The position numbers and the translations under genes are program-made. A model generated the notes under the pieces. The model was not told the origin of the DNA and searched no databases. It saw only the letters and a list, made by a program, of their open reading frames with translations. From positions 143,460 to 207,459 of the forward strand of contig CAVWLR010000002.1 of NCBI GenBank assembly GCA_963755855.1: a DNA stretch of 64,000 nucleotides. Reading direction: 5' to 3'. This document shows, one piece after another, positions 45,370 through 53,379 of this stretch; positions within the stretch are counted from its first letter, which is position 1; the number at the start of each line of letters is the position of its first letter. This DNA comes from an uncultured Actinomycetes bacterium. GTDB taxonomy: Bacteria > Actinomycetota > Acidimicrobiia > IMCC26256 > DASPTH01.

Positions 45370-46077
45370 CTAGACCGCGGAGGCGGCTTCCCCCGGGTGC
45401 TCGCCCGTCACCATGAAGCCGACGCGCTCGGCGATCGTGACGGCATGATCGGCGATGCGCTCGTAGTGGCGACCCACGAGGGCCATCTGCACCGCGAGGA
45501 GCACGGCGCCCTCGTCGCTGCCGTCGCCCGCGAGCACGTGACGGAAGAGGCTCTTCGTGAGCTCGTCCATCGCGTCGTCCATGTCGGCGAGCGCCGCGGC
45601 CCATGACGGATCGGAATCGGCGAACACGTCGATCGCGACGCGCGTCTGGTTGCTCGCCTGCGTACCCATGCGGTCGATGATCCCGCGCAGCTTCGGGTCG
45701 AGCTGGTGCGGATAGAGACGGCGCGTCGTCTTCGCGACGTTCACCATGAGATCGGCGCTGCGCTCGAGCTCGTGCGCGACGCGCATCACGGTGACGAGGA
45801 AGCGCAGGTCGGTGGCGATCGGCTGTTGACGCGCGAGCAGGAGGAACGTGCGGTCCTCGATCGTGTGCGTGAGCTCGTCGATCACGTCGTCGGCCTCGAT
45901 GACCTCCTCGGCCGCATTGAGATCGCCGTCGAGCAATGCCTGCGTGCCGCCGGCGATCGCCTCGGTGGTGAGCGCGGCCAGGCGGATGACGTCGGTGCGC
46001 AATTCGTCGAGGTCTTCGTGGAACGACTTGCGAGCCTCTTCGGGGGGCTCGCCGTCGGGGAGTGGTGCAATGGTCAC
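45370..46077 (-). CDS. phoU: Phosphate signalling protein PhoU (copy 1)
   Basis: DDVID, QQPIATDLR, ELERSADL, DDAMD and YERIADHA. Confidence 0.95.
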   Translation of the reverse strand: MTIAPLPDGEPPEEARKSFHEDLDELRTDVIRLAALTTEAIAGGTQALLDGDLNAAEEVIEADDVIDELTHTIEDRTFLLLARQQPIATDLRFLVTVMRVAHELERSADLMVNVAKTTRRLYPHQLDPKLRGIIDRMGTQASNQTRVAIDVFADSDPSWAAALADMDDAMDELTKSLFRHVLAGDGSDEGAVLLAVQMALVGRHYERIADHAVTIAERVGFMVTGEHPGEAASAV

Positions 46078-46253
46078 GACGCCTCCGGTGGGGGTGCGAA
46101 CGAAAGGGAACGGCCGGTCGCGGCCGAGTGTGTCGCGCGCGCGGCGGGTTCGTGTCGTTCGAACCCTAGGGTGCGCGCAGTCTTCAGTGCCCGTTTACCT
46201 GCCCGCCACACAAGGGCAACGGCATGGAAACCGCGCGCTCGTAGTGTGACTGT

Positions 46254-46710
46254 CAACCGAGAGCGGCTCTTGGATCCCCCCTCCGAGAGCAGTTCCGGGA
46301 TCTGGCTCTTCTCGGTTGGGAGTGCGTGGCCGACGAAGAGTCGTACGGAGAGTGCGGGGCCGGGAAATCCCCCCTTCCCGGCCCCTCGCTCTCCGAGGGT
46401 CACGTTCGAGGAACGCGGTGGGAAATCCCCCGCCACCTTCTCGTGCTCGGCCCCTCGCTCTCCGAGGGTCACGTTCGAGGAACGCGGTGGGAAATCCCCC
46501 GCCACCTTCTCGTGCTCGGCCCCTCGCTCTCCGAGGGTCACGTTCGAGGAACGCGGTGGGAAATCCCCCGCCACCTTCTCGTGCTCGGCCCCTCGCTCTC
46601 CGAGGGTCACGTTCGAGGAACGCGGTGGGAAATCCCCCGCCACCTTCTCGTGCTCGGCCCCTCGCTCTCCGAGGGTCACCGGCTCTCCGCAGACCACTCG
46701 TGCGGCGAGG
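46254..46710 (+). ncRNA. Candidate 6C-like structured RNA with six C-rich loops
   Basis: TAGTGT -10 at 46242-46247; hairpin 46266-46290 (loop UCCCCCC); 21-bp hairpin 46346-46395 (loop AUCCCCCC); four repeat hairpins with loop GAAAUCCCCCG. Confidence 0.55.
46379..46679. repeat. Perfect 69-bp tandem repeat, about 4.4 copies
   Basis: Unit CGGCCCCTCGCTCTCCGAGGGTCACGTTCGAGGAACGCGGTGGGAAATCCCCCGCCACCTTCTCGTGCT starts at 46379, 46448, 46517, 46586 and 46655 (partial). Confidence 0.97.
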
Positions 46711-46714
46711 GCAG

Positions 46715-47419
46715 TCATCGGCGGAACCTCGAGCTGCGGGTGTGCTCGCCGGTGGCGACGTAGTGGACCTGCTCCGCGATCGTCACCGCGTGATCGCCGA
46801 TGCGTTCGTAGTGACGCGCCACCAGAGCCAGCTGCACCGCCGCGTTGAGGCGTGACTCGTCGACCACTGTGCCTCCGTCGACTTCGAGCACGTGACGGAA
46901 CAGCCGGCGCTCGATCTCGTCCGTGGTGTCGTCCATGTCGGCGAGTGCAGCAGCCCACGACGGGTCGCGGTCGACGAACGCGTTCACCGCCACCCGGAGC
47001 TGCACGGTGACCTGCCGGCTCATGCGGTCGACGAGCGGGCCGGCGATGGCGTCGAGCCGCGCTGGGTGCAGCCGCCAGGTGGTGCGGGCCACGTTGACCA
47101 TGAGGTCGGCGCTGCGTTCCAGCTCGTGCGCGACCCGCAGGGCCACACCCACGAACCGCAGGTCGGCGGGGCAGAGACCGGGGGTGGAGATGATCCGGAG
47201 GCAGTCGTCCTCCACCGCATGGCGGAGCGAATCGATGGCATCGTCGTCGGCGACGACCCGGTCGGCGTGCTCGAGGTCGGCGGCGATCAGCGCCTCGGTG
47301 CCGGATCGGACCGCGTCGAGGGTGAGTGATGCCAGACGCACGACGTCGAGGCGCACGTCGTCGACGCGTTCGCGGACGTGCGGATCCGACTGGCCGGGCA
47401 CGACCTCCGAGGAGACCAC
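46715..47419 (-). CDS. phoU: Phosphate signalling protein PhoU (copy 2, more divergent)
   Basis: DDAID, ADLR, ELERSADL, DDTTD and YERIGDHA; divergent from pstS. Confidence 0.9.
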   Translation of the reverse strand: MVSSEVVPGQSDPHVRERVDDVRLDVVRLASLTLDAVRSGTEALIAADLEHADRVVADDDAIDSLRHAVEDDCLRIISTPGLCPADLRFVGVALRVAHELERSADLMVNVARTTWRLHPARLDAIAGPLVDRMSRQVTVQLRVAVNAFVDRDPSWAAALADMDDTTDEIERRLFRHVLEVDGGTVVDESRLNAAVQLALVARHYERIGDHAVTIAEQVHYVATGEHTRSSRFRR

Positions 47420-47458
47420 GGGGTGATCATGGTGGTGCTGACCAGCCCATCTGCGGCG

Positions 47459-47535
47459 TTCCACCCACTGTTTCCCGCCTGTTCACCTTCGCGCCACCGC
47501 GACGCCACAGCGCGTCCAGGGTGCCTTCGTACGCT
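47459..47535 (+). promoter_or_regulatory. PHO-box array and -10 of pstS
   Basis: 11-nt units TTCCACCCACT GTTTCCCGCCT GTTCACCTTCG CGCCACCGCGA CGCCACAGCGC GTCCAGGGTGC, then TACGCT at 47530. Confidence 0.75.
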
Positions 47536-47580
47536 CCGCGCCGTACAACGACCAGTCCACGTTCCAGGAGGAACACCCAC

Positions 47581-48642
47581 ATGCTCCGTTCGTTCGCTCG
47601 TCGCGGCGGGATCGTGCTCGCCGCGTTGGCGCTGCCGGTGCTGTTCATCGGCAACGCCGCGACAGCCAGCACGCCGACGCAGGCGAAGCTCTCCTCCGCC
47701 ACCATCAACGGTGACGGCTCCACCTTCCAGCTCGGTTTCAACCAGGTGTGCATCGGCGGCTTCAAGCAGCAGCAGAAGGCCGTGACCATCAACTACCAGG
47801 GCAACGGCTCGGGCGCCGGCCGCACCGACTTCGTCAACGGCGTCGTCGACTTCGCGGGCACGGATGCGGCGTACAAGTCGACCGACCCCCAGCCGCCGAA
47901 GCCGTTCCTCTACTTCCCGACGGTGGTGGCGCCGATCACGGTGTCGTACAACCTCTCGGGTGTGAAGCTCAACCTGTCGCCCGAGACGGCGGCGAAGATC
48001 TTCTCGGGTGCGGTGACGACCTGGAACGACGCCGCGATCAAGGCCGACAACCCCAAGGCGAAGCTGCCCAGCACGACGATCACCGTCGTGCACCGCAGTG
48101 ACAGCTCGGGAACCACCGCCAACTTCACCAGCTGGCTGACCAAGGCCGCGCCCACCGACTGGACGCTCGGCAGTGGTTCGACCGTGAGCTGGGGCTCGAG
48201 CACCCAGGGTGCCACCGGCAACTCGGGTGTGGCGAAGCTGGTCAAGGACACCGATGGCGCGGTCGGCTACGTCGACTTCTCCGACGCCAACGCCAGTGAC
48301 CTGACGTACGCGGCGATCAAGAACTCGGCGGGCAAGTTCATCACGCCGAGCCTCGACTCCGCCGCCGCCGCCGCTCAGGGTGCCTCGGTCAACGCCGATC
48401 TGACGTACGACCCCATCAACTCGGATGGTGCGGCTGCGTACCCGATCACCTCGCCGACCTGGATCATCGTCTACACCGACCAGACCGACGCGGCCAAGGG
48501 CAACGCCATCAAGGGCTTCCTGAACTACATCTACAGCGACGGCCAGAAGCTGGCATCGTCGGTGGACTACGCGGGTCTGCCCAAGGGTCTGCTGAAGCAG
48601 GCCAAGGCGCAGGTCAAGCAGATCACCGTCCCTGCGTCGTGA
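47581..48642 (+). CDS. pstS: Phosphate ABC transporter substrate-binding protein
   Basis: GSTF, GSGAG, DFAGTD, HRSDSSGTT and YPI; AGGAGG RBS. Confidence 0.95.
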   Translation: MLRSFARRGGIVLAALALPVLFIGNAATASTPTQAKLSSATINGDGSTFQLGFNQVCIGGFKQQQKAVTINYQGNGSGAGRTDFVNGVVDFAGTDAAYKSTDPQPPKPFLYFPTVVAPITVSYNLSGVKLNLSPETAAKIFSGAVTTWNDAAIKADNPKAKLPSTTITVVHRSDSSGTTANFTSWLTKAAPTDWTLGSGSTVSWGSSTQGATGNSGVAKLVKDTDGAVGYVDFSDANASDLTYAAIKNSAGKFITPSLDSAAAAAQGASVNADLTYDPINSDGAAAYPITSPTWIIVYTDQTDAAKGNAIKGFLNYIYSDGQKLASSVDYAGLPKGLLKQAKAQVKQITVPAS

Positions 48643-48645
48643 TCT

Positions 48646-48700
48646 CGGGCGGGTCGTGCACGGGACGGGTGTCCCCCCGTCCGTCCCGTGCCCCCGCCCG
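48646..48700 (+). terminator. Stem-loop between pstS and pstC (mRNA stabiliser or attenuator)
   Basis: GCACGGGACGG-GTGTCCCCCGT-CCGTCCCGTGC, with an outer CGGGCGGG/CCCGCCCG stem. Confidence 0.65.
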
Positions 48701-51562: not shown

Positions 51563-52678
51563 ATGAGTCCGCAGCGACGCGACCAGACGGCCGAAACCGA
51601 ACTGGCACTGGCCAAGGCGCTCCAGCAGTCGGAGACCGTCATCAGCCAGCGGGACCGGCTGCTCGCCTCGTTCGACGAGTTGCAGCAGGGCGTGCTGGTC
51701 CTGGACGCCGACGGGAACGAGGTGTTCCGCAACGCTGCGGCCGAGCGCTACCGGGATGCCCGGCATGCCGATGCGGTCGTTGCCGGAGCGTTGGATGCCC
51801 TCGTCCTCCGTGCCCTGGAAGGTGAGCGTTGCGAGCGCGAACTGCAGCTGCACACGCCGCCCCGCTCGGTCGTCCGGCTCACCGCCGTGCCCATCCGGAT
51901 CTCCGACCGCGCGCTGGGAGTGGCAGCGTTCGTGAACGACGTCTCGGAGATGCACCGGGTCGAGAGCGTGCGGCGCGACTTCGTGGCCAACGTGAGCCAC
52001 GAGCTGAAGACGCCCATCGGTGCCCTGGAGGTGCTCGCCGAGATCCTGGTCGGCGAAGAGGACCCGGCCGTGATCCGCCCTCTCGCGGAGCGCATCGTGA
52101 AGGAAGCCGAGCGACTGGCGCGCATCGTCGACGATCTCCTCGATCTCAGCCTCATCGAGACCCAGGAGACGCCTCCCCGTGCGCCGATGCCACTCGAAGT
52201 GCTCGTCGACGACGCCGTGGATCAGTTGCGCCCGGCGGCCGCCGCCAGTGGGATCAACCTGCAGGTGCACCCAGGCGTCACCGGCGCCCTCGTGTCGTGC
52301 GAACGCCGGCAGGTGGTGAGCGCGCTCGCGAACCTCATCGACAACGCGGTGAAGTACTCGGAGCCCGGATCACCCGTGACGGTCGGTACCGCACTGCTCG
52401 ACGGTGAGGTCGAGGTGTCGGTGCGCGACGCAGGAATCGGGATCCCGAGCCGCGACCTGGAACGCGTCTTCGAACGGTTCTACCGCGTCGACCAGGCGCG
52501 CAGTCGTGACACCGGCGGCACCGGTCTCGGCTTGTCGATCGTGCGCCACGTGGCGCGCGCCCATGGTGGCGACATCACGGTCGAGTCGGTCGAGGGCCAG
52601 GGCTCCACGTTCCGCTTCGTGCTCCCGCTCGAACCCGAATCGGTCGCGGTGCGGTCACCGCAGCAGGAGAACGTCTGA
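51563..52678 (+). CDS. phoR: Sensor histidine kinase, PhoR/SenX3-like
   Basis: RRDFVANVSHELKTP, NAVKYS, FERFYRVD and GGTGLGL; follows pstB. Confidence 0.9.
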   Translation: MSPQRRDQTAETELALAKALQQSETVISQRDRLLASFDELQQGVLVLDADGNEVFRNAAAERYRDARHADAVVAGALDALVLRALEGERCERELQLHTPPRSVVRLTAVPIRISDRALGVAAFVNDVSEMHRVESVRRDFVANVSHELKTPIGALEVLAEILVGEEDPAVIRPLAERIVKEAERLARIVDDLLDLSLIETQETPPRAPMPLEVLVDDAVDQLRPAAAASGINLQVHPGVTGALVSCERRQVVSALANLIDNAVKYSEPGSPVTVGTALLDGEVEVSVRDAGIGIPSRDLERVFERFYRVDQARSRDTGGTGLGLSIVRHVARAHGGDITVESVEGQGSTFRFVLPLEPESVAVRSPQQENV

Positions 52679-53379
52679 TGCCGGAGGCGCCGCTGATCCT
52701 CGTGGTGGACGACGAGCAGTCGTACCGCGATGCGCTCCGGATCGCGTTGGAGCGGGAAGGGTTCCGGGTCGAGGTCGCCGCCGACGGCGCGGAGGCCATC
52801 GCGCGCTTCGACGCCGTGCGCCCTTCGTTGGTGCTGCTCGACGTGATGCTGCCGCGCATCTCCGGCGTCGACGTGTGCCGTGAGCTGCGGACGCGCTCGC
52901 AGGTGCCGATCATCATGGTCACCGCACGCAATGCCGAGATCGACGCCGTGGTTGGCCTCGAGGTGGGTGCCGACGACTACGTGACCAAGCCGTTCCGGCT
53001 GCGTGAGCTCGTGGCGCGAGTGCGCGCCGCGTTGCGACGTGGTCGGGGCGAGGAGACCGGTGCCGCGCTGCCCGACGAGGTGATCGAGATCGGCGCCGTG
53101 CGCCTCGACGCCGCCCGCCACGAGGTCGCCGTGCGCGGCGAACGCGTCGCGCTGCCGCTGAAGGAGTTCGAGCTGCTCGAGCTGCTGCTCGCCAACGCGG
53201 GGCGGGTGCTCACGCGCGACGTGTTGATCGACCGCGTGTGGGGTCCGAACTACTACGGCGACACCAAGACCCTCGACGTGCACGTGAAGCGCCTGCGGGC
53301 GAAGGTCGAGGACGACCCCGGTCATCCGGCGCGCATCGTCACCGTGCGCGGCGTCGGCTACCGCTACGAGAAGGTCTAG
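52678..53379 (+). CDS. regX3: OmpR-family response regulator, PhoP/RegX3-like
   Basis: Receiver domain plus PLKEFELL and YYGDTKTLDVHVKRLR. Confidence 0.9.
   Translation: MPEAPLILVVDDEQSYRDALRIALEREGFRVEVAADGAEAIARFDAVRPSLVLLDVMLPRISGVDVCRELRTRSQVPIIMVTARNAEIDAVVGLEVGADDYVTKPFRLRELVARVRAALRRGRGEETGAALPDEVIEIGAVRLDAARHEVAVRGERVALPLKEFELLELLLANAGRVLTRDVLIDRVWGPNYYGDTKTLDVHVKRLRAKVEDDPGHPARIVTVRGVGYRYEKV

Follow-up and report, generated by a model that had tools for sequence, protein, structure and literature searches.

Sponge RNAs such as CsrB and RsmZ are made up of repeated hairpin modules, the number of which differs between species, and their GGA loops bind CsrA or RsmA. A second kind of small RNA (sRNA) with recurrent loops is the 6C RNA of the Actinomycetota (Rfam family RF01066; named B11 in mycobacteria), in which the hairpin loops contain six cytosines. 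The C-rich loops of 6C are described as binding G-rich ribosome-binding sites (RBSs) without the help of a chaperone, and the discussion of the same report proposes stem-loops with C-rich loops as alternative terminators for Gram-positive bacteria of high GC content (PMC6486639). In Corynebacterium glutamicum, 6C is reported to be driven by SigA/SigB (PMC5014011). PhoS of Bacillus, by the published account, is a 66-nucleotide (nt) sRNA of a phosphate-regulation locus that derives from the 3' untranslated region of phoR, is induced by PhoP when phosphate is scarce and activates translation of phoP (PMC11522486). For Streptomyces, PhoP operators are given as 2-8 units of an 11-nt repeat with the consensus G(G/T)TCAYYYR(G/C)G, placed near the -35 region of pstS and phoU (PMC2275107). 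Here we describe a predicted structured RNA located between two phoU genes, phoU-1 and phoU-2, in a 64-kb stretch of DNA (the window, to which all positions refer unless another contig is named) from an uncultured member of the class Acidimicrobiia.

To our knowledge, RNA regulators are almost wholly undescribed in the Acidimicrobiia, a class that is represented here only by metagenome-assembled genomes. A literature search returned no paper on an sRNA of the Acidimicrobiia, and PhoS of Bacillus was the only PhoP-dependent sRNA that it found. A preliminary description of the locus had proposed a promoter-driven RNA of the 6C type on the + strand, with six exposed C-rich loops, four of which would stem from tandem duplication. 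The reading that we favour, and in which we have reasonable though not strong confidence, is that the region from 46254 to about 46395 on the + strand encodes a PHO-box-driven, trans-acting sRNA of about 140 nt. It would be transcribed under Pho control and would pair with mRNAs via its exposed loops, and the tandem 69-nt units that follow it may belong to the RNA as an accessory module. The grounds for this reading are conservation, covariation, strand bias, promoter architecture and the variable number of units. Coordinates of all features are collected in Table 1.

Structure, strand and distribution of the core RNA

The core region (46254-46395, + strand) has a conserved structure of three hairpins, designated H1, H1b and H2. 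In a DNA search of 61 genomes, the stretch 46163-46395 was recovered at 76-93% identity from all 15 genomes belonging to the same genus, and the H2 part was also recovered from other genera of the family. The order of elements within the intergenic region is fixed: the phoU-1 start is followed by 11-nt direct repeats, a TAnnnT hexamer, a variable H1, then H1b, the long H2 and usually the phoU-2 stop. Relatives differ from each other by 1-nt indels and by the presence or absence of a whole hairpin.

Each of the three hairpins shows compensatory change. The inner stem of H1 is formed by GCTCTTGGA (46266-46274) and TCCGAGAGC (46282-46290) around the loop TCCCCCC, and 5 of its 9 pairs carry compensatory change among 17 sequences. 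In H1b the figure is 7 of 10 pairs (28 sequences), and the loop GTGCGT is invariant in all 24 aligned sequences and invariant or nearly so throughout the family. H2 carries compensatory change at 12 of 21 pairs, with 93.8% of cells paired and 30 G.U combinations vs 8 A.C. This last hairpin is likely the 3' end or a terminator-type hairpin of the sRNA. No U-tract follows H2 or any of the 69-nt units, and neither was recognized as an intrinsic terminator in a scan of 45900-47700.

Consensus folding on an alignment made with MAFFT only found H2 alone, the alignment being out of register, and an alignment based on the covariance model was used instead. Across its 28 sequences, 91.5% of cells hold standard pairs and compensatory double changes occur at 19 of 31 pairs; an alignment fitted to a covariance model favours structure, yet the effect is still large, and compensatory changes can be made out in the raw sequences themselves. 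None of 500 shuffles reached any of the five covariation measures, and slid controls were 40-56% paired. Thermodynamic folding of the + strand gave -89.9 kcal/mol for the 148-nt core (z = -5.7; none of 200 shuffles folded equally well) and -262.3 kcal/mol for the 481 nt from 46240 to 46720 (z = -8.0; none of 100 shuffles did so). As far as can be judged from sequence, this conserved and covarying structure fits a structured non-coding RNA gene.

The hairpins of the preliminary description were only in part those that we arrived at. All of the sequence elements that it listed are present in place, and its H1 and H2 are retained, while the middle hairpin H1b had been overlooked. It had also drawn an outer stem from the 9-bp complementarity between 46254-62 and 46310-18. 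The complementarity exists, but a functional stem at this site was rejected: none of the 9 pairs shows compensatory change, one pair is unpaired in 13 of 17 relatives, and the stem overlaps and competes with H1b, which does covary.

The near-palindromic hairpins of the core can also be folded from the opposite strand, at -73.4 kcal/mol (z = -2.4) compared with -89.9 kcal/mol on the + strand. The structure might thus belong to the - strand, where it would lie between the cistrons or in the leader of a phoU-2/phoU-1 mRNA or would simply be the terminator of phoU-2, and the RNA-library contigs that cross the promoter region (see below) would suit such a transcript. We consider this very improbable. 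In 29 of 30 family members it is the + strand that folds more stably, the mean difference being 10.5 kcal/mol, and the aligned pairs contain 60 G.U as opposed to 25 A.C combinations. Moreover, the pstS-type promoter faces right, and the element is kept in relatives that have no phoU-2. A structured RNA gene with its own promoter on the + strand, as the preliminary description had it, is thus supported by the covariation, by the strand asymmetry, including the greater stability of the + strand when both strands are folded, and by a conserved TAnnnT behind a PHO-box array of the pstS type.

The distribution of the RNA was determined from genome samples in which several assemblies are incomplete, and absence below means that it was not found in the genomes searched. 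A first covariance model, comprising H1b and H2, matched 29 of the 32 genomes from a single Acidimicrobiia family (f1). For the scans of the order and the class, the model was rebuilt on 28 sequences. Within the order sample, the rebuilt model matched the genome of the window and 16 of 17 sampled f1 genomes, and had no match in 133 genomes from 22 other families. Within the class sample, it matched the genome of the window and both f1 genomes, with no match in 148 others. When loci were approached via homologues of phoU-1, the element was found at the expected place in 24 of 80, all of these having a phoU-1 identity of at least about 81%. One further locus (L075) has a diverged copy that the model missed. 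Within this scope the RNA appears to be specific to one family of uncultured Acidimicrobiia. No Rfam family matched the loci of 16 relatives at E<=1. In our assessment the element is genuine, namely a structured RNA gene that is conserved within and specific to one family, has a promoter of the PHO-box type and is new to Rfam.

Promoter, phosphate locus and RNA-library coverage

The promoter of the sRNA shares its register with the pstS promoters found in its own genome and in relatives across the class, namely four 11-nt units (with a fifth upstream), a gap of 5 nt and TAnnnT. A position weight matrix (PWM) was built from 45 pstS-type promoters of relatives, leaving out those of the sRNA type, and was run over both strands of the 5.09-Mb genome (about 10.2 million positions). 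The pstS promoter of the window ranked first with 70.9 bits and the sRNA promoter second with 23.7 bits, the third site having 14.9 bits. Sequence conservation begins at CAACCGAGA, directly downstream of the -10 hexamer and the predicted start, which we place at about 46254-46256. Taken together, the pstS-like register, the second rank in the PWM scan and the precedent of Streptomyces point to a Pho-controlled promoter that is directed rightward. A local response regulator of the OmpR/PhoB type would then switch on the sRNA when phosphate is scarce. The third and fourth PWM matches, G000:C13:300972 (-, 14.9 bits) and C9:2251159 (-, 10.0 bits), may mark further genes of the Pho regulon; the leader behind the latter contains CCCCCGGGGGAGGAA directly ahead of a start codon.

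In relatives the sRNA is always located directly upstream of phoU-1, and in most of them the end of H2 is about 20-90 nt from the phoU-2 stop. Three loci deviate from this pattern on the phoU-2 side. In L015 phoU-2 is deleted, with only its first codons left. In L028 it is absent, and the sRNA directly adjoins the pstS promoter, while in L023 another gene on the + strand has taken the place of phoU-2. All three loci have kept the sRNA, which speaks against a role restricted to phoU-2. In other families of the class, pstS and a single phoU are divergently oriented, and no such RNA lies between the two.

Sequence from the sRNA locus is present in RNA libraries from four studies, although DNA may occur in such libraries (Table 1). 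Six RNA runs contain part of the stretch; the sequences of the four that were compared with it are contigs and carry no strand, ends or level. Parts of the 2.4-kb stretch that they leave uncovered are not informative, which applies to most of the array in X14, X16 and X18 and to all but 46423-46521 in X17. The X18 contig at 46283-46399 and the X17 contig count in favour of the RNA. Three contigs (X14, X16 and the X18 contig at 46180-46286) cross the predicted promoter and start. Such contigs are not expected from two divergent transcripts, and they point to DNA carry-over or to read-through, for example from phoU-2 into phoU-1.

It is mainly because of these contigs that a cis-antisense or convergent element deserves consideration. 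Here the + strand transcript would run into phoU-2, or pair perfectly with a read-through mRNA from phoU-2 to phoU-1, so that starvation lowers PhoU, and H2 would serve as a two-way terminator. The element is indeed convergent with phoU-2, with H2 ending close to its stop in most relatives as given above, read-through is plausible since H2 has no U-tract, and contigs that span the phoU-1 leader, the promoter and H1 fit a read-through transcript of the - strand. Nevertheless, loci in which phoU-2 is gone (L015, L028) or exchanged for another gene (L023) still have the RNA, H2 included, and a purely antisense role requires neither strong covariation nor invariant loops. We therefore judge an antisense role to be unlikely and continue with a trans-acting RNA.

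The neighbourhood of the sRNA is that of a phosphate locus. Rightward of phoU-2 lies pstS, the product of which is a PBP_like_2 protein, followed by two permease genes, an ABC ATPase gene and the genes for a histidine kinase and an OmpR/PhoB-type response regulator (pstCAB and a two-component pair). At some of the relatives' loci the phoU homologues align in two frames (phoU-2 in L011, L019 and L022; phoU-1 in L018). These could be real frameshifts or assembly errors, and several such assemblies have few contigs and low marker completeness. On the leftward side, the candidate -10 hexamer of phoU-1 lies within ACCCTAGGGT (46163-46172), which is palindromic in the window and gives TAGGGT on both strands; relatives keep only the - strand reading. 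Between this candidate promoter and the phoU-1 start is the sole terminator-like site in 45900-47700 (46111-46126, - strand), a GC stem of 6 bp followed by TTCCCTTTCG. The stretch is poorly conserved in relatives, and the site could be an attenuator in the phoU-1 leader.

Table 1. Positions of the predicted sRNA, its hairpins and promoter, the tandem units, neighbouring genes and matching RNA-library contigs in the window
Feature	Position	Strand	Remarks
PHO-box array	46182-46236	+	five 11-nt direct repeats: CTTCAGtgccc, GTTTACctgcc, CGCCACacaag, GGCAACggcat, GGAAACcgcgc
sRNA -10 hexamer TAGTGT	46242-46247	+	TAnnnT at the same spacing in family members
Hairpin H1	46257-46299	+	minimum free energy (MFE) fold; loop UCCCCCC at 46275-46281
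Hairpin H1b	46303-46343	+	apical loop GGAGUGCG; GUGCGU at 46322-46327
Hairpin H2	46346-46395	+	20 pairs, one C/U mismatch, one U.G; loop AUCCCCCC (46367-46374)
Four identical 69-nt units	46396-46464, 46465-46533, 46534-46602, 46603-46671	+	plus 8 nt of a fifth; array 46396-46679
phoU-1	45370-46077	-	Pfam PhoU, E = 1e-35; divergent from sRNA
Candidate phoU-1 -10 hexamer TAGGGT	46163-46168	-	ACCCTA kept in same-genus intergenic regions; inferred only
phoU-2	46715-47464, likely start 47401	-	Pfam PhoU, E = 1.2e-32; convergent with sRNA
pstS PHO-box promoter	47470-47535	+	top PWM match, 70.9 bits; template-like paralogue of sRNA promoter
Candidate Pho response regulator gene	52678-53379		Trans_reg_C domain; OmpR/PhoB type
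X14 contig	46092-46303		0 differences
X16 contig	46054-46279		3 differences
X18 contig	46180-46286		12 differences
X18 contig	46283-46399		3 differences
X17 contig (99 nt)	46423-46521		0 differences

Tandem units, C-rich loops and candidate targets

Directly downstream of H2 the window contains an array of 69-nt units, for which Tandem Repeats Finder gave a period of 69 bp, 4.4 copies and 100% identity (46379-46679, score 602). Each unit combines GGGAAAUCCCCC with a repeat of H2's 3' arm, but differs in its 5' half. Within the 5.09-Mb assembly the unit occurs at only five places, which are adjacent and all at the sRNA locus. A dispersed repeat of the REP (repetitive extragenic palindrome) or MITE (miniature inverted-repeat transposable element) type, genome-wide copies of which the preliminary description had set against its own proposal, is ruled out by this confinement. 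Of 30 family loci, five have homologous units, and these loci all belong to genus g1 (four units in the window, three in L007 and one each in L011, L015 and L019); the other 25 loci have none. The variable unit number for which the preliminary description had proposed a test is thus borne out, the range between species being 0 to 4.

The four copies are identical, which indicates that the amplification is recent. The 99-nt contig of X17 is identical to 46423-46521 and longer than one unit, so the array is not an artefact of this assembly alone. The tandem expansion is therefore real but young, and its consequence is unclear. With regard to structure, the GGUGG/CCACC stem that had been described for each unit is possible, but the MFE fold pairs GGUGGG with CCCGCC. 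The C-run of the window's unit has an unpaired probability of 0.01-0.26, and exposing it costs 4.9 kcal/mol (0-3.4 kcal/mol in the units of relatives). The corresponding probabilities are 0.94-1.0 for the C-run of H1 and 1.0 for that of H2. Six exposed C-rich loops can accordingly not be upheld, since folding predicts mostly paired C-runs in the four units.

Repetition of a module invites the thought of a sponge, the multivalent role raised in the preliminary description, in which the modules, or the GUGCGU loop of H1b, titrate an RNA-binding protein and the number of units sets the capacity. Variation from 0 to 4 modules between species would agree with such a role, as would the invariant H1b loop and the units of L015 and L019, the 3' arms of which share species-specific substitutions with the H2 arm of the same species. 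On the other hand, no candidate partner protein is known, 25 of the 30 family loci have no extra unit, the complete identity of the four units points to very recent slippage over selected dosage, and the C-runs of the units are predicted to be paired. A protein-binding or sponge RNA is in our estimation quite improbable. Under a trans-acting RNA, the four units would represent a recent, species-specific amplification of an accessory module that was derived from H2 and is present in 0-3 copies in sister species.

The C6 loop of H2 is present in all 28 aligned members, and H1 has such a loop at 17 loci of genus g1 and 3 loci of genus g8, where it stands on different stems. Runs of C6/G6 are about 25-fold depleted in the genome (781 positions vs 19,692 expected). 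Two C6 loops within 100 nt are consequently unusual, and the argument from a shared C-rich motif, on which the preliminary description had relied, has weight in this respect; it loses some of that weight through similar C6-loop hairpins behind at least five other genes (see below). The loops of H1 and H2 share the sequence UCCCCCCU, which is exactly complementary to AGGGGGGA, a sequence present at many RBSs. Those G6 runs that are left in the genome cluster in RBSs, in sister families too. A G6 run falls within the RBS window of 89 of 8,494 crude open reading frames (ORFs) vs 25 of 49 genes for Peripla_BP_6 binding proteins, an enrichment to be read with the caveats that the choice of start codons favoured G-runs and that these genes are paralogues. 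The Peripla_BP_6 assignment was confirmed by Pfam in 10 of 10 genes checked.

From these features a mode of action can be outlined for the trans-acting RNA. It would present H1 and H2 with exposed UCCCCCCU loops and H1b with its GUGCGU loop, and H2 would probably also form the 3' end. Most likely it would act through base pairing of the single-stranded loops with mRNAs. The partners of the C6 loops would be the rare G-rich RBSs, as in 6C RNA, and the loop of H1b may be a second seed or a site for protein binding. A bolder version can be envisaged, which we regard as doubtful. In this version the RNA would be the lineage's post-transcriptional arm of the Pho regulon, with the UCCCCCCU loops, when phosphate is lacking, clamping the G6 Shine-Dalgarno sequences of about half of some 50 LivK-type (Peripla_BP_6) genes and so coupling amino-acid and nitrogen uptake to phosphate; the units would alter dosage or stability between species, and a genome-wide code of C-loops at the 3' ends of genes and of G6 RBSs might exist in the Acidimicrobiia.

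Several observations, in addition to the promoter-crossing contigs, weigh against a trans-acting RNA with C-rich seeds. Genera g2, g3, g5 and g7 have a weak C-rich loop on H1 or none, and g4 lacks the H1 hairpin altogether, so that in these five of the seven genera with the RNA the C6 loop is on H2 only. At least five other genes, among them pstS, are followed at a distance of 16-53 nt by long hairpins with a C6 loop. The C-rich loop of H2 may accordingly belong to a general style of 3' ends or terminators in this genome and not be a seed. Without a U-tract behind H2, moreover, the position of the 3' end is a prediction only. A scan of duplex energies between the loops and the 5' regions of 4,691 crude ORF starts yielded no standout target, the top scores being unremarkable. 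The neighbouring Pho genes did not stand out either, their best result being the pstA start with the H1b loop (2.4th percentile in 42 tests). Among Peripla_BP_6 genes, G-run RBSs amount to 8 with G6 and 10 with G5 of 30 in families without the RNA vs 13 and 7 of 30 with it, about as common in both, which argues against a specific co-occurrence. Finally, the family members are interrelated, and counts across them overstate independence.

The Peripla_BP_6 genes with G6 RBSs were also considered as the specific regulon of the RNA, and this was rejected because five genomes from families without the RNA share the feature. With respect to individual C6-loop hairpins elsewhere, the one behind pstS (48658-48691, +) is a GC-rich hairpin of 13 bp without a U-tract, located 16 nt past the stop codon. 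Others are located at G000:C9:1165262, behind a Peripla_BP_6 gene, and at C4:167119, with the loop GGAUCCCCCCUCC identical to that of H1.

Comparison with described systems

Covariance-model searches with RF01066 gave no match at E<=10 in the region 45800-47000 and none at the gathering score (47 bits) in the 64-kb window. Likewise, no match was obtained in the window's own genome or in 151 genomes of the order, though sensitivity of these genome scans is limited, only 1 of 14 control genomes having given a signal, and that below the cut-off. Membership in the 6C family, as initially put forward, is thus not supported by these searches, and "6C-like" holds as an analogy only, one of working principle in the use of C-rich loops. 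A true 6C homologue that has diverged strongly and moved into the Pho locus would share the phylum Actinomycetota and, in g1 and g8, two C6-loop hairpins, and it could have filled a vacant niche, as canonical 6C was not found in the 151 genomes. The lack of an RF01066 match at E<=10, the extra conserved H1b, the single C loop in most genera and a promoter other than the SigA/SigB type described for C. glutamicum (PMC5014011) make this the least probable of the alternatives that we weighed, even though the negative 6C searches, given their control result, are weak either way.

The in-silico case for the RNA is unusually complete, with a promoter comparable to that of pstS, strong covariation, a clear strand bias and natural variation in module number. 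If the favoured reading is true, an RNA layer is added to phosphate control in a widespread soil lineage, and the species with 0, 1, 3 and 4 units form a natural series for asking what the tandem growth of an sRNA does.

Compared with 6C, the RNA has in common that it is a small RNA of an actinomycetotal host with six cytosines in its hairpin loops. Two C-loop hairpins, as in 6C, are seen in g1 and g8, while g2, g3, g4, g5 and g7 have that of H2 only. Unlike 6C, the RNA is hosted by Acidimicrobiia and has a third conserved hairpin with a GUGCGU loop, and only the C loop of H2 is universal in the family. It is further set apart by tandem accessory units in some species and by a predicted PHO-box promoter, the promoter described for 6C of C. 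glutamicum being of the SigA/SigB type (PMC5014011). The hairpins of CsrB and RsmZ are likewise repeated in a number that depends on the species; in contrast to these RNAs, neither such a partner nor such a motif was seen for the present RNA, and extra modules are lacking in most family members.

H2 is similar to the C-loop terminators proposed for high-GC Gram-positive bacteria in being long and GC-rich with a C-rich loop and no U-tract, and similar hairpins stand behind pstS and at least four other genes. It differs from them in that its sequence is kept across seven genera and in that it is part of a promoter-driven non-coding unit and is not located behind an ORF. With PhoS of Bacillus the RNA shares its position as a small RNA inside a phosphate-regulation locus. 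By description, the level at which the two were compared, it is unlike PhoS in having a PHO-box promoter of its own, a length of about 140 nt and C-rich loops. With regard to Streptomyces, the pstS promoter of the window (GTTCACCTTCG) agrees with the PhoP consensus at 10 of 11 positions, and the difference from the PHO-box promoters described there is that one such promoter here drives a predicted non-coding RNA.

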